DNA of 64,000 nt from Bacteroides sp. 51 (GCF_010500965.1 NZ_QVMI01000006.1:31976-95975); one strand, 5' to 3'. Positions 8,708 through 61,030 are shown, counted from the stretch's first letter. Numbers and translations are program-made. Notes: generated by a model from the sequence alone, not told the origin.

Positions 8708-8736
8708 TTATAAAGTTTAGTTAATGAATATATGTG

Positions 8737-10035
8737 TTATCGGCCGCTACGTCCACTTTCGGAACTACGGCTGCTGTTGCGCTGTTGTTCTTCGCGTTGA
8801 CGCGTTTCGGTTTCCCGTCTTTCTCTTTCCTGACGTTCTTGTACTTCTCTTTGCCTGCGTGATTCTGCTTCTTGTCGTTCGCGTTGTTGGCGTTGCTGTT
8901 CTTCTTGTTGTCTACGGTTCTCGGCTTCCCGGCGTTCTTGCTCCTGGCGTTCTTGCGCTTCTCTTTGTCTGCGCGCTTCGGCTTCTTGCCGTTCGCGTTG
9001 CTGGCGGTCTTGTTCTTCGCGTTGTCTACGGTTTTCTGCTTCCCGGCGTTCTTGCTCCTGACGTTCTTGCGCTTCTCTTTGTCTGCGCGCTTCGGCTTCC
9101 TGTCGTTCGCGTTGCTGACGGTCTTGTTCTTCGCGTTGTCTGCGGTTTTCGGTATCTCTGCGCTCTTGTTCCTGACGTGCTTGCGCTTCTTTTTGTCTGC
9201 GCGCTTCGGCTTCCTGACGTTCGTTGTCTCTCGAATTGGTTTCTCTTTCAGATTCGCGTTCAATATTAATATTCTCCGGTTTAGTCACCGATTCGGGAAT
9301 GGGCCTGGACGGATTTCTTTCTCCTATTGGGCTGCTTGGCTTAGTTACGGACTCCGGCGTTGGTCTTTGAGGTGATCTGTCGCTATTCGATTGGTTGTCT
9401 TTGCCTCTGCCAGGACGTTCCGCCGGCGGTTGGGGTTTATGCTCATGGCCAGGTCGCTCGGGTTTTGGTTTGCCGGGTTTGTTTGGTTTATTCGGCCTGT
9501 TTGGCTTGTTGGGTTTTATGGGTTTATGGGGTTTGTTTACCCACCCCGGATGATGGGAGTATGAGTAATCCGGATAATAATAATCCATAAAGAGATAATC
9601 AGTAATATAATTTTCAGTAAAAATGGGGTAGTAATCATTATGGTATATGGGTGAACTGTTTTCTATATAATAACTTTCGTTATTGAGATAAGGATAGTTA
9701 TCTTCGGGTATATCATAATTGTCATCCGGATAGTCGCCTATCAGAATGCTTGGAGTTTCTTCATATACGGGGTTCGCAGATTCATGATCGGGTAATGGCG
9801 ATTGATCCTTGTTTGTGTTTTGTATATTATTACTTTTGTTGTGCGATACCGTTTCGCTTTTCTTACTGATACTTTCGCTGTTCACAGTAAGAGAATCTTC
9901 TGTTTCCTGAACGATTTCAGTATTGCTAACAGTGGGACTCGGGGTTTTCACACTTTCTCTTTCTACCGTGTTTCTGCAACTTAGTTGTAAAAACAATATG
10001 CATAGCATGCATGTGTATAAGTTTAGCCGTTTCAT
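8737..10035 (-). CDS. Lipoprotein with a PNK-rich linker and 39-aa E/R/Q-rich tandem repeats (predicted single alpha-helix region)
   Basis: Lipobox LQLSC. KPNKPNRPNKPNKPGKP linker. ERQEAEARRQREAQERQEQERREAENRRQREEQDRQQR is repeated about 3.3 times. Confidence 0.7.
   Translation of the reverse strand: MKRLNLYTCMLCILFLQLSCRNTVERESVKTPSPTVSNTEIVQETEDSLTVNSESISKKSETVSHNKSNNIQNTNKDQSPLPDHESANPVYEETPSILIGDYPDDNYDIPEDNYPYLNNESYYIENSSPIYHNDYYPIFTENYITDYLFMDYYYPDYSYSHHPGWVNKPHKPIKPNKPNRPNKPNKPGKPKPERPGHEHKPQPPAERPGRGKDNQSNSDRSPQRPTPESVTKPSSPIGERNPSRPIPESVTKPENINIERESERETNSRDNERQEAEARRQKEAQARQEQERRDTENRRQREEQDRQQRERQEAEARRQREAQERQEQERREAENRRQREEQDRQQRERQEAEARRQREAQERQEQERREAENRRQQEEQQRQQRERQEAESRRQREVQERQERERRETETRQREEQQRNSSRSSESGRSGR
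8830..9200. repeat. 117-nt tandem repeat array (about 3.2 copies) inside the lipoprotein CDS
   Basis: Near-identical 117-nt units are visible in the sequence. They produce the spurious overlapping ORFs on both strands. Confidence 0.8.
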
Positions 10036-40341: not shown

Positions 40342-40398
40342 ATAATCTGTTACCGATTTCTGGTTCCAGATATCGATGACGAATCTTGTACTGGATAT

Positions 40399-40477
40399 CG
40401 TAGGGGCGGTTCGCGAACCGCCCAATACACAGAATATACAGAAAAACATTTTCGGGCGGTTCGCGAACCGCCCCTAC
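40399..40477. repeat. MITE/REP-like element, copy 1: two inverted copies of the 20-bp palindrome GGGCGGTTCGCGAACCGCCC with terminal GTAGG/CCTAC
   Basis: GTAGGGGCGGTTCGCGAACCGCCC-31 nt-GGGCGGTTCGCGAACCGCCCCTAC. Ends 10 nt before the GH16 ATG. Confidence 0.8.
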
Positions 40478-40486
40478 ATTTACCCT

Positions 40487-44079: not shown

Positions 44080-44819
44080 AAAATATGAAAAAGATACTCC
44101 TTGTTATATTCCTATTCTTAGCCCCTTTCGCCTTACAGGCTCAGGAAGCTAAGACCCTTTTCAGTAATATCCCCGAAGCCGTATTACCATTACTTTCTTC
44201 CGTGAACCGGGCAGACTTTGTGGACTTCCTCGAAAGCAATATGAAAGCCGAAGTAAAGAATAAGTTTGGAGGTACTTCGGAAATGACAGATCTGACTTCT
44301 GATTATATCCGTATTCAGATGACATCCCGAAGTACATGGGAGATGAAAACATTGGCAGTGAATGACTCAACAAAGATAATCTGTACGGTATCCACCACTT
44401 GCGCTCCGGTTTGCGATAGTGAGGTACGCTTCTATGCTGCGGATTGGAACGAAATTCCTTCTTCCTCCTACCTGACACCTCCCGTTATGGATGATTACTT
44501 CCAATTGCTTGATTCGGCAAGACTTGATGATTATACAATTTACCGGAGCAGAATGGATATGTTACTTGCTAAAGCCAGTCTGTCAAAAGAAGATAATACG
44601 CTGACTTTCACTTTAACTACTCCTGAATATGCGGGTAAAAGAAGTGCTGATGATGAAAATGAAATCGCTAACATAGACGAGTTTCTTCGTAAACCATTAG
44701 TGTTTGTTTGGGAAAGTGAACCGGATTCAGGTAGTTATCAGTTTACAGCCTCACCCCAGCCCTCTCCTTTGGAGAGGGCTGGGGTGAGGCTTTCACTCCT
44801 GTCTGTACGACGCCTTTAG
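44076..44819 (+). CDS. Hypothetical secreted protein
   Basis: Signal peptide LAPFALQAQE and an ATGA overlap with the EamA gene. The 3' end runs through a perfect hairpin. Confidence 0.5.
   Translation: MKNMKKILLVIFLFLAPFALQAQEAKTLFSNIPEAVLPLLSSVNRADFVDFLESNMKAEVKNKFGGTSEMTDLTSDYIRIQMTSRSTWEMKTLAVNDSTKIICTVSTTCAPVCDSEVRFYAADWNEIPSSSYLTPPVMDDYFQLLDSARLDDYTIYRSRMDMLLAKASLSKEDNTLTFTLTTPEYAGKRSADDENEIANIDEFLRKPLVFVWESEPDSGSYQFTASPQPSPLERAGVRLSLLSVRRL
44749..44791. repeat. Perfect 20-bp-stem hairpin (GCCTCACCCCAGCCCTCTCC TTT GGAGAGGGCTGGGGTGAGGC) at convergent gene ends
   Basis: Visible directly in the sequence. Shares the C-rich/TTTGGAG/G-rich core with the element at 35345-35472. Likely a bidirectional terminator. 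Confidence 0.8.
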
Positions 44820-45467
44820 TATCCAGTATTGTGTGTCTTCTGTGTTGATATCAAAGGGATATTCAATCCAGGTGTTGAGTGATAATGATATATTGTTATC
44901 TTTTTCTTTATATACTCCCCATTTTATGCCTTCGGCGTTAACCATGATGCCTAACTTCCCGATAATCCGGTGAATGTTCTCCTTTACCACTTCCTCATAG
45001 ATCAGAATATCTCCATTCTTATAATCGAATCCGCTGGGTAGGTTTTCCTGGTTCTCTACTTCTATGGCGATTAACTTAAACTTCGAATTACTGGGTACGG
45101 TGATTTGGGGTAACGAGCTTAAGAACTCTTCGCTCATAAATTGAGCAATATAATCATTTATATATAATATAGGTATATAAGGAACCTGCGTTAACTGCTG
45201 TGTTACTTTTAGCTTTTCAGTTTCCACTACCAATGCAGTGTTGTAGTGCAACAATTCATTTACCGACAATTCTTTTTCTATAAGGCTGGTTAGCGGAATG
45301 CTAAAATAATTAGCAATCTTCACCAATGTCTCTATTTTAGGCTCTGCACGAAACTCTTCATATGACGAAATGTTGCCTCTGGTAAGGTGAAACAGGTCTG
45401 CAAAGGCTTGCTGGCTCAACCCCTTTATATTCCTTATCTTTTTTATGTTTTTACCTATCTTTGTCAT
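44793..45467 (-). CDS. XRE-family HTH regulator with C-terminal LexA/CI (S24)-like beta domain, apparently without the catalytic Ser
   Basis: N-terminal HTH (KIRNIKGLSQQAFADLFHLTRGNISSYE). C-terminus NGDILIYEEV ... GKLGIMVNAEG ... GVYKEKD has an S24-like pattern. Confidence 0.6.
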   Translation of the reverse strand: MTKIGKNIKKIRNIKGLSQQAFADLFHLTRGNISSYEEFRAEPKIETLVKIANYFSIPLTSLIEKELSVNELLHYNTALVVETEKLKVTQQLTQVPYIPILYINDYIAQFMSEEFLSSLPQITVPSNSKFKLIAIEVENQENLPSGFDYKNGDILIYEEVVKENIHRIIGKLGIMVNAEGIKWGVYKEKDNNISLSLNTWIEYPFDINTEDTQYWILKASYRQE

Positions 45468-45584
45468 TATTTTGCTAAAAAAGTTTGCAGATTAAATTTC
45501 TTTGCCTATATTTGCTAAAAGCATTTGCAAATCTAAGATTTAATTTGCTCAAAAACAAGAGAAATGAGGGAAATTAATGATTTA

Positions 45585-45656
45585 CTGTAGGGGCGGTTCG
45601 TGAACCGCCCAATGCCCGGAAACAATTTTCGGGCGCTTCGCGAACCGCCCCTACAG
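45585..45656. repeat. MITE/REP-like element, copy 2 (same family as 40399-40477)
   Basis: CTGTAGGGGCGGTTCGTGAACCGCCC-24 nt-GGGCGCTTCGCGAACCGCCCCTACAG. Confidence 0.8.
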
Positions 45657-45701
45657 TATTCCTATACTGAACTGAATAGAAACAAGTAAAACCATAAACA
45701 A

Positions 45702-46088
45702 ATGTTCAGAAAGATAGAAGAATATATCACAAGGTTGGGATACTCCATCTCATACCAAAGTAAAGCGGATGGTATCTTTTGTATTGAGAATGAACCCGAT
45801 GGTATCAAGAATCTCATTGTCGGTGTTGCTCCTCCCATCCTTATTATGGAGCAGTACATCTTCACCCTTAAAAGTGATGATCCTGAAATCCTGAAAGCCT
45901 TGTTGAAGAAGAACAGGGATATTATTCACGGTGCTTTTGTGCTGGATGAAGAAGGACGCAAAGTAATCTTCCGGTATACGATGCAAATCGAGAATCTGGA
46001 TATAAATGAATTCGAAGGAGCATTGAACTCATTAGGTCTGCTCCTTGGCGAATACTACGAACAAATTATTGAATTCTCTAAAAAATAA
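45702..46088 (+). CDS. YbjN-like protein (putative sensory-transduction regulator / chaperone-like fold)
   Basis: 128 aa. A small acidic alpha/beta protein with a YbjN-family-like pattern. Sits immediately upstream of the PspA homolog, a known co-occurrence. Confidence 0.5.
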   Translation: MFRKIEEYITRLGYSISYQSKADGIFCIENEPDGIKNLIVGVAPPILIMEQYIFTLKSDDPEILKALLKKNRDIIHGAFVLDEEGRKVIFRYTMQIENLDINEFEGALNSLGLLLGEYYEQIIEFSKK

Positions 46089-46092
46089 GACT

Positions 46093-46791
46093 ATGAATAT
46101 CTTCAAAAGACTATTAAGAATCGGCAAGGCGGAAATGCATTCCGCAGTAGATAAGATGGAAGATCCGATCCGTATGACCGAACAAGGCATCCGGGAAATG
46201 AGAGAAGATCTGGATAAAGCAATAGAATCTTTGGCGCAAATCAAAGCTATGGCTATACGTGCTAAAAACGATAAAGCTAAAAAGCAATCCGAAGCACAAG
46301 ACTATGAAAATAAAGTTGTTTTGCTGTTGACCAAAGCACAGAAAGGTGAACTTGAGATGGCGCAGGCCGAACGGTTGTCAACCGAGGCATTAACATTGAA
46401 AGACAATCTACTGGTTGAGGCAAATGCGTTGGATGAGCAACAGAAAACACATGAAGCTGCCGCCGCAGGTATACAACAAAATATTGATGTGTTGAAGTTC
46501 AATATAACCAAATGGGAGAACGAACTGAAAACACTTAAATCGCGTATCCGTGTGAGCCGTGCAACTAAGGAAGTGAACAAGCAAATGGCTATGATCGACA
46601 GTAATAGTACCATTAGCATGTTGCAACGAATGAAAGAAAAAGTAGAAGAAGAGGAGGCTCTTGCACAGGCTTATGGTGAGATTGGTGGCGCAAAATCTAC
46701 CGTAGACGATGAGATTAATCAGGCCATCGGTGCGGACAATAAAGTCAGTACCGAGCTGGATGAGATCAAGAAAAAGCTGGGAATCCAATAG
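46093..46791 (+). CDS. pspA: PspA/IM30-family protein (ESCRT-III superfamily)
   Basis: N-terminus MNIFKRLLRIGKAEMHSAVDKMEDPIRMTEQGIREMREDL with long coiled-coil heptads, typical of PspA/Vipp1. The start is taken at the internal Met after the YbjN stop. Confidence 0.8.
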   Translation: MNIFKRLLRIGKAEMHSAVDKMEDPIRMTEQGIREMREDLDKAIESLAQIKAMAIRAKNDKAKKQSEAQDYENKVVLLLTKAQKGELEMAQAERLSTEALTLKDNLLVEANALDEQQKTHEAAAAGIQQNIDVLKFNITKWENELKTLKSRIRVSRATKEVNKQMAMIDSNSTISMLQRMKEKVEEEEALAQAYGEIGGAKSTVDDEINQAIGADNKVSTELDEIKKKLGIQ

Positions 46792-46795
46792 CCCT

Positions 46796-46894
46796 ATGAT
46801 AGTGGATTTTCAAGTAATAATATTATCTTTGGCTCTCATAATATTGTCATTGATTATTTTGATTCTATCAATCATTTCTATATTACTACTATGA
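46796..46894 (+). CDS. Possible 32-aa single-TM peptide coupled to the NfeD gene
   Basis: MIVDFQVIILSLALIILSLIILILSIISILLL*. The stop TGA overlaps the ATG of the next gene. An AT-rich open frame is the alternative explanation. Confidence 0.3.
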   Translation: MIVDFQVIILSLALIILSLIILILSIISILLL

Positions 46895-47595
46895 CCGAAC
46901 TACTGCACAACCTGACACATCCGTTGCCCAATGCGGTTATGACCGTTGTCATGGCTATACTCGTGATTTATTGGTTGTTCGTATTCTTTAGTGGTGCCGG
47001 ATTGGACGATCTTGACCTGGGGTTCGACTTTGATGTCGATATTGACGCAGCCGAACCCGAACCGGTTGATGTTGACGCTGATGGTGGTGCTGACGATGTA
47101 GAACCTTCAACAGAAAAGTCGCCGGGATTCTTTATGAAGTTCCTGAGTTTTATGAACGTGGGTAAGGTACCTTTTATGCTGATTCTTTCCACACTTAAAT
47201 TCTTTATGTGGGTAGGTACGCTCATAACCACTTCGTTCATTAACATTACAGGGTGGGGCACGCTGTCCGTACTAATCCTTGTTCCTTTGTTTTTCGTTGG
47301 ATTGTTTTTTACTAAATTATCTACTAATCCTTTAGTGAAACTCTTTAAAGAAATAGGCTATAAAGGCGAAGAAGCGATCGACTTTCTAGGACGTTCCGGA
47401 AAGATGGTTTCTTCGATTAAGGATGATAAGATAGGCTGTGCAGAAGTGATTGTCGATAAAAACCCAATCAAACTCAACGTGAAGAGTATAGACGGTGAAG
47501 AATTGAAATATGGTGATTATATCATCATTGCTGACGAATCGGATGACAAAAAGCTCTATCTGGTGAGCAAAGAAATTAGTATTCGGAACATATAA
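46891..47595 (+). CDS. NfeD-like membrane protein (TM region plus C-terminal OB-fold); flotillin partner
   Basis: TM helices and an acidic linker (DLDLGFDFDVDIDAAEPEPVDVDADGG). C-terminal GRSGKMVSSIKDDKIGCAEVIV ... YGDYIII resembles the NfeD C-domain. Confidence 0.65.
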   Translation: MTELLHNLTHPLPNAVMTVVMAILVIYWLFVFFSGAGLDDLDLGFDFDVDIDAAEPEPVDVDADGGADDVEPSTEKSPGFFMKFLSFMNVGKVPFMLILSTLKFFMWVGTLITTSFINITGWGTLSVLILVPLFFVGLFFTKLSTNPLVKLFKEIGYKGEEAIDFLGRSGKMVSSIKDDKIGCAEVIVDKNPIKLNVKSIDGEELKYGDYIIIADESDDKKLYLVSKEISIRNI

Positions 47596-47629
47596 ACAAA
47601 ATTATAATAATTAAAACTATCCAAATCTT

Positions 47630-49819
47630 ATGGGAGAACTCATTATCATTATAGCGGGCGCTGCTATATTTATTCTGCTGGTCATTATGGGTATGCTGGC
47701 CACATTCTACAAGAAAATACCTCAGGGAAAAGCAATTGTACGTACGGGTGTCGGTGGCACCAAAGTAGCCTTTAATAAAGGTATGTATGTCATTCCAATT
47801 TTCCACAAGATGGAAATTATGGATATTTCTTTGAAGAAAGTACAGATTGAGAGAATGCAGCATGACGGGTTGATCTGTAAAGACAATATCCGTGCCGATA
47901 TCAAGGTGGCTTTCTTTGTACGTGTAAACAAATCCATCAACGATGTTATTAACGTAGCACAGTCTATCGGCTGTTCACGTGCCAGTGATATTTCAACGCT
48001 GAAAGATATCTTCGAAGCTAAGTTCTCTGAAGCGTTGAAAACAGTGGGTAAGAAGTTTGACTTTATTGAACTCTACGAAGCACGCCGCGAGTTCCGCGAT
48101 GAAATTATCAATATCATCGGTACAGATCTGAATGGGTATGTACTGGACGACTGTGCGATTGACTACCTGGAACAAACCGAACTGCAATTTCTGAGTCCGG
48201 ATAATATTCTCGACTCCGAAGGTATCCGTAAGATCACAGACCTGACTGCTGCTCAGAATATCAAAGCTAATCTGATTCGTCGTGAAGAAGAAAAAGTAAT
48301 CAAAAAACAAGATGTTGAAGCACGCGAAGCGATTCTGGAACTTGAAAGACAACTTGCCGAGAAAGAAGAAAAGCAAAGACGCGAAATAGACAATGTAAAG
48401 GCTCGTGAAGAAGCTGAGATCCAAAAGGTACGCGAGGAAGAACGACTGAAATCTGAAACGGTACGCATCTCTACGGAAGAGTCATTGGCTGTGCAGGAAG
48501 AAAACAAACTGCGCCAAATCATTATTGCCGAGAAGAATAAGCAAAGAACCGAAGCGGTCGAAGCAGAGCGTGTAGAAAAAGACCGTGCATTGGAACAGAC
48601 CGAGCGCGAACGTATCGTGACCTTGTCGCAAATTGACAAAGAACGTGCAATTGAAGTTGAGAAAAAGAATATTCAGGATGTGATCCGCGAGCGTGTACAA
48701 CTCGAAAAAGGCGTGGTGGAAGAACAACAGAATATCAAAGATATTGAAGCGTTCAGAAGTGTAGACCGTAAGAAGCAAGTCGGCATAACCGAAGCATCAC
48801 AAGAAGCGGAACAACATTTAATTGAAACGGTGAAAGGTGCCGAAGCTGCAAAACTCGCCGCCGAAGAAAAAGCTAAACAATTACTGATTGATGCCGAGGC
48901 TCAGAAAGAAGCATCTGCTAAACAAGCCGAAGCACGCAAGATATTGGCCGATGCAAAGGCACGTGAGGATGCAACTTATGGTTTGGCAGAAGCCGAAGTA
49001 ATCAAAGCGAAAGCCGAAGCCCTTGAACAACAAGGTATGGCAGAAGCTGTGGTGATTGAGAAGAAGGCCAAAGCCGAAGCAATAGGTATTGAAGCCAAAG
49101 CCGAAGCGAAGAAAAAAGAAGGGTTGGTAGAAGCCGAAGTAACCAAGGAAAAAGCTATGGCATCTGCTGTAGGTGAAGCCAGCATCATTGAGAAAACATC
49201 GTTGGCGGAAGCTACCGGTATCGAAGCGAAAGCCGAAGCTAAGCGTAAGGAAGGTTTGATGGAAGCGGAAGTGCTGAAAGAAAAGGCATTGGCAGAAGCT
49301 ACGGGAATCGAAGAAAAGGCGGCTGCAATGAAGAAACTGGATGGTGCCGGAAAAGAACATGAAGAGTTCAAACTTGCCCTGCAAAAAGACAAGGATGTGG
49401 AACTGGCTCAGATCGCTATACAGAAAGATATTGCCGATGCTCAGGCTCATGTGTTGTCGGAAGCACTCAAGAATGCAGATATTGATATTGTTGGTGGCGA
49501 AACCATGTTCTTTGAGAATATTGTTAAGCAAATCTCTAACGCCAAAGGCTTTGATCGTCTGGTTAATGAAAGCGAAAACGCTACTCAAATCAAGGGTGCA
49601 TTGCTTGGCAATGGTGGCTCGGAAGGTGATTTGTTTGAACGTATCCGCTATTTTGCAAATCGCTTGAATATCTCTACGGATGATGTGAAGAATTTAAGTA
49701 TTGCTGCCCTTATTCTTAAAATGCAGAGTCAGTGTACCAGTGAAGAGGACAAAGGCTTCTTAGGTAGCTTGATGAACATGGCGAAGTCTATGGGAATCAG
49801 CAATAAAAAACTCAATTAA
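47630..49819 (+). CDS. Flotillin-like SPFH/Band-7 protein with a long coiled coil and EA-rich repeats
   Basis: N-terminal TM plus SPFH core (KGMYVIPIFHKMEIMDISLKKVQIE...). C-terminal IEAKAEAKKKEGLVEAEV... repeats are typical of the flotillin C-terminus. Confidence 0.85.
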   Translation: MGELIIIIAGAAIFILLVIMGMLATFYKKIPQGKAIVRTGVGGTKVAFNKGMYVIPIFHKMEIMDISLKKVQIERMQHDGLICKDNIRADIKVAFFVRVNKSINDVINVAQSIGCSRASDISTLKDIFEAKFSEALKTVGKKFDFIELYEARREFRDEIINIIGTDLNGYVLDDCAIDYLEQTELQFLSPDNILDSEGIRKITDLTAAQNIKANLIRREEEKVIKKQDVEAREAILELERQLAEKEEKQRREIDNVKAREEAEIQKVREEERLKSETVRISTEESLAVQEENKLRQIIIAEKNKQRTEAVEAERVEKDRALEQTERERIVTLSQIDKERAIEVEKKNIQDVIRERVQLEKGVVEEQQNIKDIEAFRSVDRKKQVGITEASQEAEQHLIETVKGAEAAKLAAEEKAKQLLIDAEAQKEASAKQAEARKILADAKAREDATYGLAEAEVIKAKAEALEQQGMAEAVVIEKKAKAEAIGIEAKAEAKKKEGLVEAEVTKEKAMASAVGEASIIEKTSLAEATGIEAKAEAKRKEGLMEAEVLKEKALAEATGIEEKAAAMKKLDGAGKEHEEFKLALQKDKDVELAQIAIQKDIADAQAHVLSEALKNADIDIVGGETMFFENIVKQISNAKGFDRLVNESENATQIKGALLGNGGSEGDLFERIRYFANRLNISTDDVKNLSIAALILKMQSQCTSEEDKGFLGSLMNMAKSMGISNKKLN

Positions 49820-49830
49820 TTTACTATTTA

Positions 49831-49880
49831 CCATTTACAATTTACCATTTGCTATGTAGGCTTGGTGAATTGTAAATGGT
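49831..49880. repeat. Hairpin (15-bp arms, 1 mismatch) after the flotillin gene
   Basis: CCATTTACAATTTAC ... GTGAATTGTAAATGG. Confidence 0.65.
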
Positions 49881-49900
49881 GGTTGTAATCCGTTCGTTAA

Positions 49901-49930
49901 ATTGTAAATTGTAAATCGTAAATGGTAAAT
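49901..49930 (+). repeat. ATTGTAA/ATCGTAA heptad repeats running into the ATG of the 1606-aa gene
   Basis: ATTGTAAATTGTAAATCGTAAATGGTAAAT with the ATG at 49922. The same motif class as 43121-43179. Confidence 0.7.
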
Positions 49931-52900
49931 ATAGAAGCCGGTACCTACGAAATCATAAAGAAGCGCCTTCAGGTGCAGAAAGATGATTTGGTGAAACGCC
50001 TTAACTCCCTCAACGAGGAGCGTAAGGAAGTATTTTCGTCAACGGACTTTTCATTAATAGCCAATCAACGTATAACTACCGAGAACAACTGTGAATCCAG
50101 AGGAATTATCGCTTTCGGTAACCTCTGTATCTTCGGTTATAATGTTCATTTCGGTTTGCGTTCGGATATACAGTTAAGTGATGTATTCAGTATCTATCTT
50201 TTCGAGAACAACCAGTTTATTCCTCAACCGCTCGATCTGATCAATGACGAAACGTTCATCACCGACTTTAAAAACCTCTACAAGTACTATCGCGACTCCA
50301 TCTTCTCTAAATTCAGAAGAACCGAGAACTACCTGTACATGATCTTCCAGACCAGCAAAAACCTGGGTGACGAGAAAGCATTCAAATGGCTTATTAAAGG
50401 AAATAAGCTCATTTATCAGGACGACAGAAGCATACACGAAGTTGTTAAAGCCCCTCAGCATGAGTTCAAGTGGATTAAAACCACGCTTGAAGATCGTCGC
50501 CTGGGAGCATATCCCCACGTTTCCATCCTCGATAAAGTATTTATCGAAGCCACAGGTGGAGATATTACTTTTAAGATTGAAGATAATACCCAGACCGGAA
50601 AAGGTATCTATGCAGAGAAAGTTGAAAATAAAGACCAACAACTCGATGATGCCGATTATTATTATGCCGATTTGGGCAACCTGATCCTGATTCGTATCAA
50701 ACCCTATCAGGAAGATTTCCGTGCGTTTGTATTCAATACCCGCACCAAAGAAGTGGTCAACATAAAGATGCTGAATGATGCCGGGATTCTTTTGCCCGAT
50801 AATCATGGCGTTATATTTCCCAATGGATATTATCTCCAGAACGGAGAGTCTAAAATATTCGAAAGCAATCTCGAAAATCTGGAATTCTTTCGCAAGGTTG
50901 TTTCCCCTAATGGAGAAGATTTCCTGTATATCTTCTATCAGAATGAACGGAATATCTACGTATTGATGTCGTACAATATCATCAAGCAGCAGGTAGAAAC
51001 GCCGATTATTTGTAATGGACATACGCTTTATAAAGATGGGACCTTGATCTTTTTCCGTTCCGAGCAGGAAGCTACCCGCCACCATCAGGTGCAGATATGG
51101 CAAACTCCATATCCGTTACAGCTTCCCGAAAACTATGAAAAAAGAGATAACATCCTTTATAAGATTGGAAATAAGTCCATCGTAAAAGCGATGGCAGAAT
51201 GCCAGGAAGTAATTCATCTGATAAACAAAGAAGATACTTACGAAGGGCTATATGATGATATTGTAAAGAAATCTAATGATATTGTTGATGCTTATTTCTG
51301 GGTAACCGATAGTGGAACCTTTGCACTATCAGAGCCTCTCTTGCAAATAAAAGACGTAGCTAATACGGCTATTGATGAGTTTGAGAAGGTAAAACAACAG
51401 AAGAAACACTCTGCCGAGGTGCTTGAAACTACAACGGATAAAGTGGATAAGTTGCTCTTTGCTATTAAGAACTCCAAATACGATTCTCTTGAGCAGTTGG
51501 TAAAGCTACTGGCAGATACCCGCAAGCTACAAGGTGAGGTTATTGAGCTTGTCAACCTGCGTTATATTGATCTGGAGAAAATAGACGCACTCAAAGCAAC
51601 GTTAGTCAAAACTGCTGTCGACCTTTCCGACAAAACGGTTGAGTTTTTGTTGAAAGATGAGGCTTTATTACCTTATGAAGCCAAAGTGGTAGAACAAAAG
51701 AAGCTGGTTGAGCAGGTCGAAAAGGTTATTGATGCCAATAGAATAGAAGAAAACTGCAAAGAAATATCGGCAGAGCTTGAACTGCTTATTGATATACTGA
51801 ATAGCCTTAAAATAGAAGATACCACCCAAACTACACGTATCATAGAGAAAATATCTCTGATATTTTCCTCCCTGAACGAGGTGCGGGCACAACTCAAAAA
51901 GAAAGTTGACTCTTTAAAGAGTAAAGAAGCTGTTGCCGAATTTCGTGCACAGCTTACGCTTTTGGAGCAGAGCATCGTTAACTTTCTTGAACTGGCTACT
52001 ACGCCCGATAAATGCGATGAGTATTTCACCAAGGTAAGCGTACAAATCGAAGAATTGGAAAGTAAATTTGCCGATTTCGACGAGTTTATCCTTATCATAG
52101 CCGATAAACGAAATGAAGTAGTCAAAGCCTTCGATGGACGGAAAGCTCAGTTGATCGAACAAATCAACCGTCGCACGGCTTCGCTGGAACAGATCGGGCT
52201 TCGTGTACTGAAAAATGTAGAAAACAAAGCTCAGTCTTTCAAGTCTAAGGAGGAGATACAAGCGTTTTACTCTACCGACCTGATGGTGGACAAAGTGCGC
52301 AAACTTGTCGAAGACCTTAAAGAATTAGGAGATGTTTCCAAGGCTGAGAATCTGGAAAACAGTCTTAAAACTTCTCTTGAAGATGCATTGCGTATCCTTA
52401 AAGATAAAACAGAACTCTTTGTTGATGGGGAGAATATCATCTCATTGGGTAATTATAAGTTTGCCGTAAACAAGCAGTCATTGGATCTTACCGTTGTACG
52501 GCGGGATACTAACTTGCTGTTTCATCTTACCGGAACAAACTTCTATCATTCACTAAAGAATGATGCGGTAAATAACTACCAGGATATTTGGGAGCAGGAA
52601 GTGGTTTCGGAAAACAAATTAGTGTACCGTGCCGAATACCTGGCTTATCTCGCTTTCCAGGAATCCCAGATCACCAAAGACTTTGATGCCCGGGCTTTTA
52701 TCACTAAAAAAATCGAAAACAGTTATTCCGAATCCTACCTGAAAGGAGTTCACGACTTTGATGCCATAAGCATTTACGAAGCTTTGACTTCCATTCACGA
52801 GCAACTCGGTGTTCTATCTTTCCGTCCGCAGGTGAGGGTAGCTGCGCAACTCTTTTGGTACAGCATTAAGGACGAACAAAGAAACCTGCTTCGCGGATTG

Positions 52901-54742
52901 ATTATTTCTGCAAACAATGTACTGAAAGCCTTTCCGGCTTCCAACAACTATCAATATGTACTGAAAAGCATTCAGGAAGTCTATAACGCCTGGAATACTT
53001 ACTTTAACTCTGCTACGATACGTCCGGAAAAGATCGCCATGTATCTGTTCTGCGAGTTTGGAGATAATTCGGCGTTTACTGTTAGCGAGCAATCCAAGGA
53101 GTTCAAGCAACTCTTCCTACATTATTTAAAAGAACAGAAACTTGCCGAGAACTTCCGCTTGGACCTTGAAGATAAATCATTCAGTTCAGTAGAACGTTTC
53201 TCTTTGACTCGCAACTGGCTGGCATCCTTTATCAATCTGTCTGATGACTATTTGAAGTATAAAAAGTATATCGGCGAAGCCGCTTGTCAACTCCTGCTGC
53301 AAGAATACGAGTTCGAATTGCGCCGAAGCCCGGATGTGATTGAAATAAATGACCTGCGCGGTACGCACCCTGTAATCATAAACAATGAGTATAAGATTGA
53401 CTATCATCGCTTTATACAGAAACTCAATCATTTCATTTCGGCGAGTGTACCAAGATTCAATGAGTTTACTGCGCTTAAGGAGAAAGCTATTCAGGATTAC
53501 CGGAAATCGTTGAAGATAAACGAATTAAAACCCCGTGTCCTGACTTCATTTGTACGTAATAAATTGATCAATCAGGTTTATCTTCCATTAATTGGTGCTA
53601 ATCTGGCTAAGCAACTGGGAGTTGCCGGTGATGCCAAACGTACGGCACGTATGGGTATGTTGCTTTTATTGTCTCCTCCGGGATATGGTAAAACCACGCT
53701 AATGGAGTATCTGGCAAGCATCATGGGGCTTAACTTTGTGAAGATCAATGGTCCGACTATCGGCCACTCTATTACCTCCATCGACCCCGAAGAGGCCAAG
53801 ACTTCCGGTGCGCGTGAGGAATTAAAGAAGATCAATCTTTCTTTTGAAATGTCAGATAACGTAATGCTTTATCTGGATGATATTCAGCACTGTAGCTCCG
53901 AATTCTTGCAGAAGTTTATTTCCCTTGCCGATGGCCAGCGCAAGATGGACGGTACTTTCGACGGCGAAAGCAAAACGTATGACCTACGCGGAAAACGTTT
54001 CTGCGTGGTGATGGCCGGAAACCCATATACCGAAAGCGGTGATAAGTTCCAGATTCCCGATATGCTTGCGAACCGTGCCGATGTCTACAACCTGGGAGAT
54101 GTAATCGGAGATTTGGCTAACCTCTTCAATCTGAGTTTGCTCGAGAATGCTATCGTCGAGAATCCCTATACGCAGAAAATCGCCGGAAAGAGCTTTGCCG
54201 ATTTCTACAATCTGGTAGATTATGTAGAGACAGGGGCAGAACTAATGCCCGACCTGGAAGCAAACCATACACAGCAGGATATAGACGACTTTATCGCTGT
54301 GATTAAAAATGCTCTGCTGGTACGCAACATTGTGCAGAAAGTCAATCAGAATTATATTGCAAGTGCCGCCATGCAGGATGCTTACCGGGTGGAACCACCA
54401 TTCAAACTGCAAGGTTCTTACCGTGATATGAACAAGATGATCGGGCAGATTGTGCCTCTGATGAACAAACAGGAAGTTATCAGTCTGGTGTTAACGCACT
54501 ATGAAAGCGAATCACAGACCCTGACTGCCGATAGCGAAGCTAATCTCTTGAAACTGAAAGAGCTTGCCGGTTTGTTGTCTAAAGAAGATGCCGAAAGATG
54601 GGCGCATATAAAAGACGTGTTTAATAAGAACAATAAGTTGGCGGGCATTGATCAGAATAACCAAGCCGGACAGGTTATTGCGCAATTGGCCGAGTTCAAC
54701 GATAACCTGGCAGGAATAAAGAACGCGATTGTAAAGAAGTAA
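49922..54742 (+). CDS. Giant (1606 aa) multi-domain protein: beta-rich N-terminal region, about 500-aa coiled coil, alpha-helical region, C-terminal MoxR/AAA_5-type P-loop ATPase
   Basis: Walker A LLLSPPGYGKTTLMEY (about 53680). Walker B VMLYLDDIQH (about 53875). MoxR-like sensor VVMAGNPYTESGDKFQIPDMLANRADVYNL (about 54005). Confidence 0.7.
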   Translation: MVNIEAGTYEIIKKRLQVQKDDLVKRLNSLNEERKEVFSSTDFSLIANQRITTENNCESRGIIAFGNLCIFGYNVHFGLRSDIQLSDVFSIYLFENNQFIPQPLDLINDETFITDFKNLYKYYRDSIFSKFRRTENYLYMIFQTSKNLGDEKAFKWLIKGNKLIYQDDRSIHEVVKAPQHEFKWIKTTLEDRRLGAYPHVSILDKVFIEATGGDITFKIEDNTQTGKGIYAEKVENKDQQLDDADYYYADLGNLILIRIKPYQEDFRAFVFNTRTKEVVNIKMLNDAGILLPDNHGVIFPNGYYLQNGESKIFESNLENLEFFRKVVSPNGEDFLYIFYQNERNIYVLMSYNIIKQQVETPIICNGHTLYKDGTLIFFRSEQEATRHHQVQIWQTPYPLQLPENYEKRDNILYKIGNKSIVKAMAECQEVIHLINKEDTYEGLYDDIVKKSNDIVDAYFWVTDSGTFALSEPLLQIKDVANTAIDEFEKVKQQKKHSAEVLETTTDKVDKLLFAIKNSKYDSLEQLVKLLADTRKLQGEVIELVNLRYIDLEKIDALKATLVKTAVDLSDKTVEFLLKDEALLPYEAKVVEQKKLVEQVEKVIDANRIEENCKEISAELELLIDILNSLKIEDTTQTTRIIEKISLIFSSLNEVRAQLKKKVDSLKSKEAVAEFRAQLTLLEQSIVNFLELATTPDKCDEYFTKVSVQIEELESKFADFDEFILIIADKRNEVVKAFDGRKAQLIEQINRRTASLEQIGLRVLKNVENKAQSFKSKEEIQAFYSTDLMVDKVRKLVEDLKELGDVSKAENLENSLKTSLEDALRILKDKTELFVDGENIISLGNYKFAVNKQSLDLTVVRRDTNLLFHLTGTNFYHSLKNDAVNNYQDIWEQEVVSENKLVYRAEYLAYLAFQESQITKDFDARAFITKKIENSYSESYLKGVHDFDAISIYEALTSIHEQLGVLSFRPQVRVAAQLFWYSIKDEQRNLLRGLIISANNVLKAFPASNNYQYVLKSIQEVYNAWNTYFNSATIRPEKIAMYLFCEFGDNSAFTVSEQSKEFKQLFLHYLKEQKLAENFRLDLEDKSFSSVERFSLTRNWLASFINLSDDYLKYKKYIGEAACQLLLQEYEFELRRSPDVIEINDLRGTHPVIINNEYKIDYHRFIQKLNHFISASVPRFNEFTALKEKAIQDYRKSLKINELKPRVLTSFVRNKLINQVYLPLIGANLAKQLGVAGDAKRTARMGMLLLLSPPGYGKTTLMEYLASIMGLNFVKINGPTIGHSITSIDPEEAKTSGAREELKKINLSFEMSDNVMLYLDDIQHCSSEFLQKFISLADGQRKMDGTFDGESKTYDLRGKRFCVVMAGNPYTESGDKFQIPDMLANRADVYNLGDVIGDLANLFNLSLLENAIVENPYTQKIAGKSFADFYNLVDYVETGAELMPDLEANHTQQDIDDFIAVIKNALLVRNIVQKVNQNYIASAAMQDAYRVEPPFKLQGSYRDMNKMIGQIVPLMNKQEVISLVLTHYESESQTLTADSEANLLKLKELAGLLSKEDAERWAHIKDVFNKNNKLAGIDQNNQAGQVIAQLAEFNDNLAGIKNAIVKK

Positions 54743-54780
54743 TCCTAAGTCACCGGGATAGCTCTGTCTACATACTGAGA

Positions 54781-54900
54781 TAACTCTATTTACATACTGA
54801 CGAAAATGCATTTACATGCTTACGTAAATGTGTTTACATCCTTTCGTAAATGTATTTACGTAATGATGTAAGCGTATTTACATTTAGTGTAATTGGTTGG
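54781..54900. promoter_or_regulatory. AT-rich cluster of TTTACAT / CGTAAATG / TTACGTAA motifs (multiple short inverted repeats)
   Basis: TTTACAT occurs four times and CGTAAATG twice. TTACGTAA is a palindrome. CATTTAC-8 nt-GTAAATG forms an inverted repeat. Confidence 0.4.
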
Positions 54901-54970
54901 TAAATGCAACTCGTTGATAGATAGTAATATAATGGCATTCTATTCCTTTGCGGGCAGCAGATAAGAAAGG

Positions 54971-55001
54971 GTAGAGCCGGGTCTTTATGATCCGGCTCTA
55001 C
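54971..55001. repeat. Perfect 10-bp-stem hairpin GTAGAGCCGG-11 nt-CCGGCTCTAC
   Basis: Visible directly. Possible terminator for the small minus-strand ORF. Confidence 0.5.
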
Positions 55002-55039
55002 CTGCTTAATTAAGAAAAAATACCTATTGAATACTCATT

Positions 55040-55303
55040 CTATTTGCTTAATGTGTAAGGTGCATAAGCCACATCCTGACGATAGCCCCCTTTGGTTTCA
55101 AAGTATCCGCTAGCATTTGGATCGGCCACAGCCGAAATGGTCACAAATGAATTGAATTCCGCTTTTAGTGCTTTTGACGAGATAGACTTATAATACCCCA
55201 CTCCCTTATTATCCCAAAATGCCCGGTCCGCATGCCGCGCAAATTCCCACAAATTCCCCCGAAATATCCATAAATTCGTCCCCAAACCCTCAATTAAGCG
55301 CAT
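55040..55303 (-). CDS. Hypothetical small protein (87 aa)
   Basis: Non-repetitive sequence with an in-frame stop just upstream of the ATG. No family recognised. Confidence 0.3.
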   Translation of the reverse strand: MRLIEGLGTNLWIFRGNLWEFARHADRAFWDNKGVGYYKSISSKALKAEFNSFVTISAVADPNASGYFETKGGYRQDVAYAPYTLSK

Positions 55304-55434: not shown

Positions 55435-58400
55435 ATGAAGAAAAAGCTGATTCTATTATGCAGGCTGCTGGCAAGTTTATCCCTGCCAACCGTAGGAGTA
55501 AATGCGCAGACAGTGACAAACGACCACAAGCTGGTCTACCCTTATTCCTTCGCCCCCAGCGAAGGTATAGTAAACAAAACCGAGAAAGAATACCGCAAGG
55601 AAATCTGCCTGAACGGTTACTGGGACTTCCAACCCGTGGCCCTTCCCCCGGATTACAAGCAAGAAAAAGGCATCGCCCCCACCTTGCTATTGCCCACAGG
55701 CAACGGCTGGAGCAGTACACGCATCAAAATACCCTCTCCGTGGAACATCAATGCATTTGCCAATCGCGATCTTGAAGGTCCCGACCATCGCAACTACCCC
55801 TCATACCCCAAAGAATGGGAACAAGTGAAGATGGCATGGATGAAGAAAACCTTCACCATCCCCGCCGACTGGCAAGGCCAGCAAATCAAACTCTACTTCG
55901 AAGCTGTAGCCGGCTACGCCGAGGTATACGTAAACAAAGAAAAAGTGGGCGAGAACTTCGACCTCTTCCTGCCCTTCAGCCTCGATATTACCGACAAGGT
56001 AACCCCCGGCCAAGCCCTGGAACTGCTCGTTGGCGTACGCAGCCAGTCGCTATTTGAAGACAATTCCACGATTGGCCGCCGCATCCTGCCCGCCGGCTCC
56101 ATGTGGGGAGGCCACATCAATGGTATCTGGCAAGACGTCTACCTGTTGGCACTGCCCAAACTCCATGTAGAAGACGTATATGTGAAACCCCTGGTGTCCG
56201 AAAACAGACTGGAACTGGAAGTAACCCTACAAAACAACACCGATAAAAAGGCCGACGTGCAACTGCAAGGCAACATCCGCGAATGGATAAACCGTGCCGG
56301 AACCGATGTGAACTCAGCACCTGTCCCCACCTGGACACTCGGAATGGAAGCCTTGCAGGTAGCCCCTGCCAAAGTATCCGTACCAGCCAACGCATCGCAG
56401 AAAGTAACCCTGCAAGTGCCTGTAAGCGAAGGCGCACTGGCCTATTGGACACCCGAACACCCGAACCTCTATGCCCTGTTGCTCTCCCTAAAAGATAAAA
56501 AGCAAACCGTTGACACGAAATACGAACGCTTTGGCTGGCGCGAATGGACATTGCAGGGAACTACGCAGTATTTAAACGGCCAACCCTACGCCCTGCGTGG
56601 CGACTCGTGGCACTTCATGGGCGTTCCGCAGATGACCCGCCGCTATGCCTGGGCATGGTTTACCGCCATTAAAGGCATGAATGCCAATGCCGTCCGCCCC
56701 CATGCACAAATCTATCCCCGTTTCTACCTCGATATGGCCGACGAGATGGGCATCTGTGTGATGAACGAAACCGCCAACTGGGCCAGCGACGGCGGACCGA
56801 AGCTCGACTCCGACCTCTTCTGGGAAGCATCCAAAGAACACCTGCGTCGCTTTGTTCTGCGCGATCGCAACCATGCTTCCGTCTTCGGCTGGAGCATCAG
56901 CAACGAAAACAAACCCGTTATCCTCCACGTCTATAACCGTCCCGAACTGATGGTTCCGCAAAAGAAAGCATGGGAAGAGTGGCGCGACATTGTCCGTCAA
57001 TACGACCCCACCCGTCCGTGGATATCAGCCGACGGCGAAGACGATGGCGATGGCATCCTGCCCGTAACTGTAGGTCATTATGGCGACCTGAATTCTATGA
57101 AACGTTGGGTAGAAATCGGCAAGCCCTGGGGCATCGGCGAGCACAGTATGGCCTACTATGGCACCCCCGAGCAAGTCTCTAAATACAACGGAGAGCGTGC
57201 CTATGAATCGCAGGAAGGCCGCATGGAAGGTCTGGCCAACGAGTGCTATGACCTCATAGCCAATCAGCGCCGCATGGGAGCATCGTACAGCACCGTGTTC
57301 AACATGGCCTGGTATGCCTTGAAGCCCCTTCCGCTGGGCAAGAAAGATACAGGCAAAGCCCCTTCTGCGGTCGAAGACGGTATATTCTTCGGCGAATATA
57401 AAGAAGGCATTCCGGGCGTACAACCCGAACGCGTAGGTCCGTACTGCACTACGTTCAATCCGGGTTACGACCCCAGTCTGCCGCTGTATGAAGAGTGGCC
57501 CATGTATGGCGCCATGCGTGCTGCCAATGCACCGGGCGGGCCGGCGTGGAGTGCGTATGCCACCATCGACAAGAAGCAATACGAAGCTCCCAAAGCCCTG
57601 GCGCCTGCCGGAAACTATAAAGAAGTCGTTTTCATCGGTAATACAGACAGCCGCTTAAAGGAACTGATGGATGCGCAAGGCGTGAAGTTTACCACTAAGG
57701 TAACCACTCCCGCACAGCTGCTTTACATTGTAGACGGTAGCCAACCAACAGATGCCGCCACAAAGAAAGAAATGCAAAAACAAATAACCAAAGGAGCCGA
57801 TGTCTGGATCTGGGGATTGATGCCCGAAACCGTAGCCGGATACAATGAACTCCTACCGTATCCCGTGGCTTTGGATGAATTGAAACGCTCCTCCTTCCTC
57901 CCTGTGCAAAAGTCATGGATGCGCGGACTGAATAATTCCGATTTCTACTTCTGCGAGCTTCAAAAAGCAGATGCCTCCCGCTATTCGCTGAAAGGCACGT
58001 TTGTAGAAGAAGGAGAAGTCCTGCTGAATGCCTGCAAAACAGACTGGCGCAAATGGAACAAACGTCCGGAAGAGATCAAAACAGCCGGAACCATCCGCAG
58101 CGAATACGAATGTACAGCCGCCACTCCGGTATTTGTGAGCTGCCGCCAGGGAGCGTCTGCTTTCTACCTCAGCACCCTGACCGAGTTTGCCAATTCGGAA
58201 AAAGGCTATAACACCCTTGCCGCTATCCTGGAGCACGCCGGTGTGGCTTGCGAGAAACCGGAGGTGAACATCGACGAGGTATTCTTCCTGCGCGATGAGC
58301 AGATGAACTTCCCCGTAATCACTAAGAACAAGATGGTCGAAGAGGGCGATGGATACGCATTGGAACTTTACGTGTTCACTCCCCGCCCTCTGGACGACTT

Positions 58401-58674
58401 ATTGATAGAACCCAATATGCCCAAACTCTCCCTGTTTGTCAAAGCAAAGAGTCGCCAGTTGTTTATCAACAACAAGCCTTATACCGCAATGTCTCAGGAA
58501 GGACGCAACGAAGCAACCTACAAAGAATTGCCCCTGTTGCAAGGCTGGAACAAACTCGTTCTCAAGGTGGGAAGCGGAGACAGGAATGATTTCACCGGAT
58601 ACTTTAAATGTGATAATCAGAAGCCATTCCTCTCGTTGCTGAAAGCAGCGTTTGTGAATCCGGAGGTGAAGTAA
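55435..58674 (+). CDS. Glycoside hydrolase family 2
   Basis: Signal peptide, GH2 sugar-binding domain (GYWDFQPV...), and TIM barrel with the WSISNEN acid/base motif. Confidence 0.8.
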   Translation: MKKKLILLCRLLASLSLPTVGVNAQTVTNDHKLVYPYSFAPSEGIVNKTEKEYRKEICLNGYWDFQPVALPPDYKQEKGIAPTLLLPTGNGWSSTRIKIPSPWNINAFANRDLEGPDHRNYPSYPKEWEQVKMAWMKKTFTIPADWQGQQIKLYFEAVAGYAEVYVNKEKVGENFDLFLPFSLDITDKVTPGQALELLVGVRSQSLFEDNSTIGRRILPAGSMWGGHINGIWQDVYLLALPKLHVEDVYVKPLVSENRLELEVTLQNNTDKKADVQLQGNIREWINRAGTDVNSAPVPTWTLGMEALQVAPAKVSVPANASQKVTLQVPVSEGALAYWTPEHPNLYALLLSLKDKKQTVDTKYERFGWREWTLQGTTQYLNGQPYALRGDSWHFMGVPQMTRRYAWAWFTAIKGMNANAVRPHAQIYPRFYLDMADEMGICVMNETANWASDGGPKLDSDLFWEASKEHLRRFVLRDRNHASVFGWSISNENKPVILHVYNRPELMVPQKKAWEEWRDIVRQYDPTRPWISADGEDDGDGILPVTVGHYGDLNSMKRWVEIGKPWGIGEHSMAYYGTPEQVSKYNGERAYESQEGRMEGLANECYDLIANQRRMGASYSTVFNMAWYALKPLPLGKKDTGKAPSAVEDGIFFGEYKEGIPGVQPERVGPYCTTFNPGYDPSLPLYEEWPMYGAMRAANAPGGPAWSAYATIDKKQYEAPKALAPAGNYKEVVFIGNTDSRLKELMDAQGVKFTTKVTTPAQLLYIVDGSQPTDAATKKEMQKQITKGADVWIWGLMPETVAGYNELLPYPVALDELKRSSFLPVQKSWMRGLNNSDFYFCELQKADASRYSLKGTFVEEGEVLLNACKTDWRKWNKRPEEIKTAGTIRSEYECTAATPVFVSCRQGASAFYLSTLTEFANSEKGYNTLAAILEHAGVACEKPEVNIDEVFFLRDEQMNFPVITKNKMVEEGDGYALELYVFTPRPLDDLLIEPNMPKLSLFVKAKSRQLFINNKPYTAMSQEGRNEATYKELPLLQGWNKLVLKVGSGDRNDFTGYFKCDNQKPFLSLLKAAFVNPEVK

Positions 58675-58704
58675 ATTGAATCTAACTAAAAACAAAGATA
58701 TATC

Positions 58705-60975: not shown

Positions 60976-61030
60976 AAGGTAAAGAGCAGATAACCTAAAG
61001 GTTTTAAAGATTGTTTTGGCGGGATGCTTT

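Follow-up and report, generated by a model that had tools for sequence, protein, structure and literature searches.

A 64,000-nucleotide stretch of DNA from Bacteroides sp. 51 (hereafter the window, to which all positions refer unless another locus is named) contains, at 45702-54742, six co-oriented genes that combine a PspA/IM30 protein of the ESCRT-III superfamily with a flotillin, a YqiJ/YuaF-type membrane protein and a giant AAA+ ATPase of 1606 amino acids (aa). Comparison of the neighbourhood across genomes indicates that the ATPase tracks the flotillin and its YqiJ-type neighbour rather than PspA, which appears to be an add-on. Co-oriented, close-packed and co-conserved down to 26% identity in the ATPase, the genes are supported by their sequences as a functionally linked, membrane-associated module. 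An open reading frame (ORF) check found all six genes on the plus strand, as tightly spaced as an earlier note on this DNA had described them, with successive gaps of 4, 4, −4 (an ATGA overlap), 34 and 102 nt. The features of the locus are as follows.

44793-45467, minus strand: divergent XRE/Cro-CI-type helix-turn-helix (HTH) regulator, 224 aa (Pfam HTH_19/HTH_3).
45474-45528, no strand: two operator-like imperfect palindromes (motif conservation).
45583-45658, no strand: GC-rich palindromic element of 76 nt resembling a repetitive extragenic palindrome (REP) or miniature inverted-repeat transposable element (MITE) (inverted arms).
45702-46088, plus strand: CesT/Tir-like chaperone-fold protein, putative PspA partner, 128 aa (PF22550, E = 1.3e-49).
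46093-46791, plus strand: PspA/IM30 protein (ESCRT-III superfamily), 232 aa (PF04012, E = 2e-42).
46796-46894, plus strand: hydrophobic ORF with a single transmembrane (TM) segment, 32 aa (MIVDFQVIILSLALIILSLIILILSIISILLL; hydropathy 3.4).
46891-47595, plus strand: YqiJ/YuaF-type membrane protein, 234 aa (PF21001 YqiJ_N, E = 4.5e-7; TM segments).
47630-49819, plus strand: flotillin/YqiK-type SPFH protein, 729 aa (Band_7, E = 9e-13 on residues 1-257).
49922-54742, plus strand: giant soluble AAA+ protein, 1606 aa (Pfam, AlphaFold, Foldseek).

We fetched 80 Bacteroidota genome loci (designated L with a number) and located in them the homologues of every window gene. The flotillin gene lies immediately 5′ of the giant in all 71 loci with at least 3.2 kb of flank, and the YqiJ-type gene is present in 70 of these. 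The remaining genes were counted in the 67 loci whose flank reaches 6.5 kb or more: 51 carry the complete set of regulator, CesT/Tir-like gene and pspA, 15 have none of the three (Myroides, some Flavobacterium metagenome-assembled genomes (MAGs), Dysgonomonas macrotermitis and D. capnocytophagoides), and a single locus, at a rearranged contig edge, is mixed. Absence here means that PspA is not near the giant within the fetched locus, and such genomes may carry it elsewhere. Because the three genes are present together or absent together, we regard them as a separable add-on unit. Among nine distant representatives (26-42% identity), whose contigs were searched with family profiles, flotillin is again directly 5′ of the giant in 9/9 (E 1e-31 to 1e-304) and a YqiJ-type gene is detectable in seven; HTH, CesT and PspA genes occur only in the closest (42% identity). 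An arrangement kept in 80 Bacteroidota and nine distant genomes is far beyond chance. Of the two linkages that the earlier note had raised for the giant, that to flotillin holds in every locus counted; that to PspA fails nearby in 15/67 Bacteroidota and 8/9 distant loci. A lack of co-conservation, which would have refuted the earlier note, is thus not what the loci show; the linkage is real, though asymmetric, with flotillin and YqiJ as the obligate neighbours of the ATPase.

The ATPase family is large, with more than 4285 matches, the best 120 of them at 64-93% identity in Bacteroidales, Flavobacteriales and Sphingobacteriales. Clustering at 50% identity, from a search with residues 1-1199 of the giant, yielded 1231 representatives at E ≤ 1e-3, and the full-length members, of 1500-2036 aa, stay collinear in alignment even at 26% identity. 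The most conserved parts of the operon, compared over three Bacteroidota classes, are the giant (62-83% identity) and the flotillin (66-92%).

Some loci depart from this layout. Cargo genes lie between flotillin and giant in L032, L042, L046, L051, L054, L080 (about 8500-9950) and L082 (6662-7981), and further in L003, L008, L016, L017, L019 and L023; their unrelated products include a lipoprotein of the beta-lactamase family (six Sphingobacterium loci and L082), lipoproteins resembling thioredoxin or archaemetzincin, and a DUF559 protein. The sole rearranged case among the 80 loci is L006, a Tannerellaceae MAG, where PspA, YqiJ and flotillin genes lie about 6.4 kb 3′ of the giant on the opposite strand.

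The architecture is already known, contrary to the earlier note, which had not recognised it as a described system. Ravi et al. describe the operon by comparative genomics (mSystems 2024, 9:e00847-23; bioRxiv 2020), and their table lists the identical seven-gene layout, divergent HTH regulator included, in Dokdonia donghaensis (ANH61663.1). They give a chaperone or assembly reading, and they note an abbreviated flotillin-YqiJ-AAA+ form (Ravi et al., 2024), which is the one we find in Myroides, the two Dysgonomonas species and the distant phyla. The window operon shares with their class the gene set, order, divergent regulator and phylum: CesT lies 5′ of pspA, flotillin stands with YqiJ, and the AAA+ protein has propeller and coiled-coil parts. 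Nothing essential differs; what is particular here is the 32-aa TM ORF, the MITE-like insert and the lack of a phospholipase D gene. Related contexts, with PspA beside band-7/FloT, NfeD and HTH regulators, were reported by Popp et al. (2022), and Pfam holds the models CesT_Tir_1 and DUF7902; a Pseudomonas SPFH paper makes no mention of the giant ATPase.

The giant itself matches DUF3686 at residues 1-459 (E = 1e-166), DUF7902 at 580-662 and AAA/AAA_5 at 1247-1370. The AAA+ module that had been predicted is thus real; its description as dynein/MoxR-type is unjustified, since AAA (PF00004, 32.8 bits against a cut-off of 21.2) and AAA_5 (30 bits, no better) score alike. Membership of the MoxR/AAA_5 group was rejected: AAA_5 is non-specific, no locus contains a VWA gene, and NorQ is a weak fold match (E = 1e-3). 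AlphaFold was run on residues 1-900 (predicted local distance difference test, pLDDT, 76) and 841-1606 (pLDDT 72). In the predicted structure the chain opens with a helix, which leads into a beta-propeller (about 44-394), a stretch of long helices (about 410-830, DUF7902 among them) and a small beta domain. A confidently predicted helical middle domain (about 900-1190) comes next, then a single AAA+ module and, at the C-terminus, a helical extension. A hydropathy scan predicted no TM segment, and Pfam identified no protease, nuclease, helicase or DNA-binding domain.

Foldseek searches with the N-terminal half returned the propellers of DCAF1, TolB, tricorn and prolyl oligopeptidase (E 1e-7 to 1e-4). 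Kinship with coat proteins through top fold matches to IFT-A and Elp1 was discarded, as TM-scores of 0.07-0.10 leave only propeller similarity. The AAA part drew weak, mixed matches to FtsHi/FtsH, Cdc48, AFG2, Lon, NorQ, Vps4 and spastin (E 5e-4 to 1e-2), and a PDB sequence search around the P-loop returned the classical-clade AAA proteins VAT/p97, Rix7, AFG2 and Rpt3. Walker A (SPPGYGKTT, 1251-1259), Walker B (LYLDD, 1316-1320, followed by IQH), sensor-1 (N1367) and an arginine (R1385) are invariant in 70/70 full-length representatives of the 50%-identity clusters; the ATPase site is under strong selection.

The giant's constant neighbour is a flotillin, as had been claimed. The full-length 729-aa protein has no match in Pfam or among PDB sequences because of an E/A/K-rich region; the first 257 residues scanned alone match Band_7/SPFH (E = 9e-13), and the protein is 100% identical to the NCBI entry 'flotillin family protein [Bacteroides sp. 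51]'. Its N-terminal TM anchor (residues 4-22) is followed by the Band_7 domain (28-233); beyond these come a long helical region rich in E, A and K and, at the C-terminus, a conserved tail. It is not a B. subtilis-type FloT equivalog (NF058507, 16.9 bits against a cut-off of 700). From the topology of YqiK and FloT, the protein is predicted to face the cytoplasm and not the periplasm. Its tail, LG(I/V)SNKK(L/I) (also written LG(I/V)(S/G)NKK(L/I)x; window 49780-49819), is kept in essentially all Bacteroidota flotillins of the operon and lost in distant phyla. We raise, as an idea only, that this short linear motif is a candidate docking site.

The product of the preceding gene has three or four TM segments by hydropathy scan, an acidic loop and a C-terminal beta-rich domain. 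It had been called NfeD; the YqiJ_N match (E = 4.5e-7) marks a membrane protein of the YqiJ/YuaF type, which makes it NfeD-like by family assignment, and the NfeD model itself is unmatched. A family profile aligned to the soluble domain of YuaF (2K14) in the right region, as a weak match (E = 0.96).

Within the add-on unit, the PspA assignment stood: the protein matches PspA_IM30 over nearly its full length (PF04012 positions 1-216 of 220; 145.6 bits against a cut-off of 33.9), and its ATG start coincides with position 1 of the profile. It belongs neither to the proteobacterial PspA equivalog (TIGR02977, 46.3 bits against 242.95) nor to the Firmicutes LiaH equivalog (40.9 bits against 380). 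The gene before it, which ends 4 nt upstream of the pspA start, had been called YbjN-like; YbjN (PF10722) scores 19.5 bits, below its cut-off of 22, and CesT_Tir_1 (PF22550) wins with 167.9 bits. In the Bacteroidota loci the CesT gene always adjoins pspA.

The slot between pspA and the YqiJ-type gene is variable. Here it holds the 32-aa ORF, whose stop overlaps the start of the YqiJ-type gene (ATGA); comparable hydrophobic ORFs of 26-28 aa, coupled to or abutting the YqiJ start, occur only in the two closest genomes, L001 and L002. The hydrophobic single-TM ORF reported as a mini-TM peptide does exist, and a small membrane protein is a plausible, weakly supported reading of it, given conservation in those two genomes only. 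Elsewhere in Bacteroidota the slot is filled by DUF4177 and/or PLDc_N genes, which would be recurrent, previously unreported members of the operon. In Flavobacteriia and Sphingobacteriia it encodes a 64-aa DUF4177 protein (PF13783, E = 1.5e-12), in some loci also a two-TM PLDc_N protein (PF13396); examples are L031:6698-6898, L039:5809-6057 and L082:3447-3884.

The divergent 224-aa XRE-type regulator is probably the repressor of the operon. A homologue lies divergently 5′ of the CesT gene in every Bacteroidota locus with CesT-PspA, and also in L082. Its C-terminal domain is conserved, with invariant P96, P125, A134, H166, G173, G184, L197 and N198. Ravi et al. (2024) label the gene at this position '<-cHTH+Protease'. 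In 22 regulator members we obtained zero Pfam matches to the S24 domain at E ≤ 10 and saw no conserved Ser/Lys pair, which speaks against a self-cleaving repressor of the LexA/CI type (HTH plus S24 peptidase).

Two palindromes 40 bp apart, GCTAAAAAAGTTTGC at 45474-45488 and GCTAAAAGCATTTGC at 45514-45528, lie in front of the operon, and the motif they share, GCWAA-N5-9-TWWGC, recurs in 53 of the 55 intergenic regions between HTH and CesT genes, where shuffled sequences would give 0.12. By eye we placed a Bacteroidetes-type promoter on the same segment, TTTG at 45484-45487 followed after 19 nt by TATATTTG at 45507-45514, guided by the published Bacteroides consensus; the second palindrome overlaps its −7 box, and a sigma-70 scan marks 45484-45512 too. 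Inside the block, sigma-70 and intrinsic-terminator scans, which are ill-suited to Bacteroidota, gave no more than shuffled sequences, and an Rfam scan of 44-56 kb of the window found zero RNA families.

A MITE-like element had been claimed upstream, and there is indeed a 76-nt palindrome at 45583-45658 with 28-nt arms that are 93% complementary; a second copy lies at 40398-40479 (copies of 76-82 nt). It sits between the promoter and operators and the first start codon of the operon. It is missing from all 89 related loci and is an insertion into the operon leader specific to this genome. At the same position, between the HTH and CesT genes, L002 (about 1350-1480), L004, L007 and L009 have hairpin or palindromic inserts of other, unrelated kinds; L002, for example, has a TTTTGAGTTTTGAG...CAAAACTCAAAAC palindrome, and the Tannerella MAGs have a CTTCCGGGA..CCGGTCGGATG hairpin. 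The leader could be either an insertion hot spot or a structured 5′ untranslated region in which such inserts are tolerated or needed.

We propose that the operon encodes a two-layer, inducible membrane-stress module on the cytoplasmic face, a view of the whole that we consider evenly poised between right and wrong. It starts from the observed gene content and order, their co-conservation, the conserved operators, the intact ATPase motifs and the predicted fold classes. The core layer would be the YqiJ/NfeD-type membrane protein, the flotillin and the giant ATPase, ancient and spread over many phyla. Anchored by its N-terminal TM segment, the flotillin would build an SPFH scaffold or microdomain with its YqiJ-type partner, and the soluble giant would dock on this scaffold through its propeller and helical arms and, by binding or hydrolysing ATP, assemble, disassemble or turn over the scaffold, or free clients held there. 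To this core the regulator, CesT and PspA genes would have been joined as one unit in many Bacteroidota, this genome included. The CesT/Tir-like chaperone would restrain PspA, which could join the flotillin platform and there seal or remodel membrane that is damaged, and the XRE-type repressor, seated on two operators over the promoter, would keep the operon off until a signal reached its C-terminal domain. The physical contacts in this scheme, the direction in which the ATPase acts and the inducing signal are what we infer.

For the giant in particular, we tentatively suggest, in the knowledge that it could well be wrong, that it is a dedicated non-proteolytic, ATP-driven remodeller of flotillin assemblies that in Bacteroidota also couples PspA polymers, and that may dock on the LG(I/V)SNKK(L/I) tail. 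We know of no ATP-driven, non-proteolytic remodeller shown experimentally for any SPFH scaffold. The idea of an ATP-driven PspA/flotillin membrane machine had been voiced in the earlier note; it is a reasonable reading whose linkage is supported here; its envelope-defence part finds no support from PADLOC.

Known systems resemble parts of this scheme. In B. subtilis, the SPFH protein YdjI is needed to link PspA to the membrane (PMC8581546), so that ydjFGHI likewise pairs PspA with an SPFH protein, and B. subtilis yuaFGI and E. coli yqiJK likewise encode a YuaF/YqiJ-type protein beside a flotillin. These operons differ in having neither an AAA+ ATPase nor a CesT-like gene, and YdjI is of another SPFH subfamily; the window operon unites both pairs, PspA/SPFH and NfeD-type/flotillin, with the giant ATPase. 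The SPFH pair HflK/C forms complexes with the AAA+ protease FtsH (PMC13220708), and there, as with prohibitin and the m-AAA protease, a scaffold of SPFH type is tied, genetically and in function, to an AAA+ machine of the cytoplasmic membrane. The giant's AAA module has FtsH and FtsHi among its best fold matches. The differences are that the giant lacks both a protease domain and TM segments, that its architecture outside the AAA core is unrelated, and that the flotillin is predicted to lie on the cytoplasmic and not the periplasmic side.

Several observations weigh against our proposal. The AAA region is predicted with a pLDDT of only 45-78, and its weak, mixed matches do not settle its AAA+ clade. 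Walker B ends in DD, not DE, and the pore-loop position, aligned by eye to p97 and Vps4, reads GHSITS, with an isoleucine instead of an aromatic residue. With a DD Walker B and no canonical aromatic pore loop, the protein may be a slow switch and not a remodelling motor; these features argue for an ATPase that is slow or acts as a switch, and against an unfoldase of the classical threading type. In the YqiJ-type protein, Pfam gave no NfeD match even at E ≤ 10, the C-terminal NfeD-like oligonucleotide/oligosaccharide-binding fold being undetected by hidden Markov models (HMMs), and HMMs likewise did not detect the C-terminal Pfam domain of flotillin. A PDB profile search with the regulator matched the HTH and left the C-terminal domain, where we place the signal, without a fold assignment. 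Co-transcription of the block is suggested by gene spacing only, and the unrelated genes between flotillin and giant in other loci mean that the giant may have its own promoter. The literature we searched contains no experimental characterisation of the giant ATPase or of the other operon proteins.

The alternative that fares best is that flotillin and the NfeD-type protein hold unfolded membrane proteins, which the giant then extracts or refolds, as ClpB does with small heat-shock proteins. FloA-NfeD is an ATP-independent holdase, a clamp for unfolded proteins, in methicillin-resistant Staphylococcus aureus (PMC11222466); the strict adjacency of giant and flotillin fits this idea, and beta-propellers often bind substrates or peptides, as the prolyl oligopeptidase, tricorn and TolB matches recall. 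The lack of a canonical threading pore loop and the DD Walker B speak against extraction, as does the lack of a conserved protease or co-chaperone gene in the operon. We think this reading unlikely, though well worth keeping in mind; it overlaps with scaffold remodelling, and sequence data cannot separate the two.

A Vps4-like role, in which the giant would be the dedicated disassemblase of PspA polymers with flotillin and the NfeD-type protein as accessories, is a still poorer prospect in our judgement. PspA and an AAA+ protein do stand in one operon, both here and in 51 of the Bacteroidota loci, much as an ESCRT-III-fold polymer is encoded with an AAA+ protein in the ESCRT-III/Vps4 (CdvB/CdvC) systems of archaea and eukaryotes; the giant's P-loop region resembles classical-clade AAA proteins, the nearest by sequence, and Vps4 and spastin are among its weak fold matches. 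Ravi et al. (2024) draw a Vps4 analogy for other PspA-AAA+ pairs, and the niche is open, a 2025 review finding that a Vps4-like ATPase appears absent in bacteria and that the roles of PspA's Band-7 partners are undetermined. However, the giant occurs without nearby PspA, CesT or HTH genes in the 15 Bacteroidota and eight distant loci counted above and never without flotillin, so that its conserved partner is flotillin, not PspA. It has no Pfam match to the MIT domain, its N-terminus being a helix followed by a beta-propeller; it carries a propeller/helical N-terminal extension of about 1200 aa; and the DD Walker B and the isoleucine at the pore-loop position set it further apart. We accordingly rejected membership of the Vps4/CdvC type, for which an MIT domain and an aromatic pore loop 1 are missing. 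Because the ATPase tracks flotillin and YqiJ, flotillin-centred remodelling or client release is better supported than a Vps4 for PspA.

The analogy with PspF, drawn in the earlier note along with that to Vps4, likewise made PspA the partner of the ATPase, and the same linkage counts leave it unsupported. PspF-PspA in Proteobacteria is similar in linking an AAA+ protein to PspA under stress induction; PspF is a sigma-54 enhancer-binding protein, whereas the giant has no DNA-binding domain, and here an XRE-type repressor would act on operator-like sites over a predicted sigma-A-type promoter.

An anti-phage or envelope-defence system triggered by loss of a CI-like repressor is very improbable. 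What could suggest one is the divergent XRE/CI-type regulator, with its weak PADLOC matches of HTH/controller type, a patchy distribution in Bacteroidota coupled with unusually high identity, and the variable cargo slots within the operon. When the structural genes were compared with the defence-system catalogue PADLOC 2.0, as had been proposed, no model fitted and no match was meaningful: there were only marginal local ones, such as the JetC/LmuB coiled coil for PspA and, for the giant, short matches to mad8 at the P-loop (5e-4) and to PDC-M15B (5e-3). The block is flanked by genes for TruA, an EamA transporter, a DUF3256 protein and a GH2 hydrolase, and by no mobility, integrase or defence genes. 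Hardly credible is a 'DNA repair ATPase' (the NCBI/Pfam DUF3686 label) in an incidental neighbourhood of membrane genes: the names 'DNA repair ATPase' and 'ATPase involved in DNA repair', weak partial RuvB_N matches around the P-loop and the CI/LexA-like layout of the repressor stand behind it, but the RuvB matches are below cut-off and confined to the P-loop, the giant has no nuclease, helicase or DNA-binding domain, the adjacency to flotillin and YqiJ persists to 26% identity, the repressor has neither a detectable S24 autocleavage domain nor a Ser/Lys pair, and no paper came up when the literature was searched in full text for 'DUF3686'. The DNA-repair and phage-defence readings have essentially no support.

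The flanks bear on the further suggestion that the block is an accessory island bounded by the repressor gene and MITE-like element on one side and an AT-rich motif cluster on the other. With no mobility genes, housekeeping neighbours and a presumed boundary gene that belongs to the module, the island was rejected: the repressor occurs with CesT and PspA in 51/67 loci and is lacking with them in 15/67, and the MITE-like element is specific to this genome. The downstream cluster is there: a 22-nt unit is repeated in tandem 5.2 times at 54769-54883, directly after the stop codon of the giant, and the units, like TATTTACATnCTnACGnAAATG, are partly self-complementary; a GC-rich hairpin follows at 54970-55002. 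This array could be iteron-like or regulator-binding. L001, the nearest relative whose locus includes flank, has no such array 3′ of the giant, and for that reason we did not count it as part of the system.

Beyond the hairpin, before the GH2 gene is reached, the minus strand has an 87-aa ORF (55040-55303) that matches nothing in Pfam and is perhaps no gene. At window positions 56000-61000 the GC content is 0.50-0.55; the module has about 0.38-0.44, and most of the window 0.36-0.48. This segment may be horizontally acquired; it opens with the gene for a 1079-aa GH2-family glycoside hydrolase (55435-58674).

It is still an open question how bacteria turn over their ESCRT-III (PspA/Vipp1) and SPFH/flotillin assemblies, and an operon class that couples both scaffolds with a highly constrained AAA+ protein is for that reason a good experimental entry point. 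To the published description our analysis adds a quantified tie of the ATPase to flotillin and YqiJ, a separable regulator-CesT-PspA unit with a conserved double operator, an invariant ATPase site with an unusual DD Walker B, and a candidate docking tail on the flotillin. If the giant does remodel flotillin assemblies, it would represent a flotillin-centred bacterial counterpart of the Vps4 principle.

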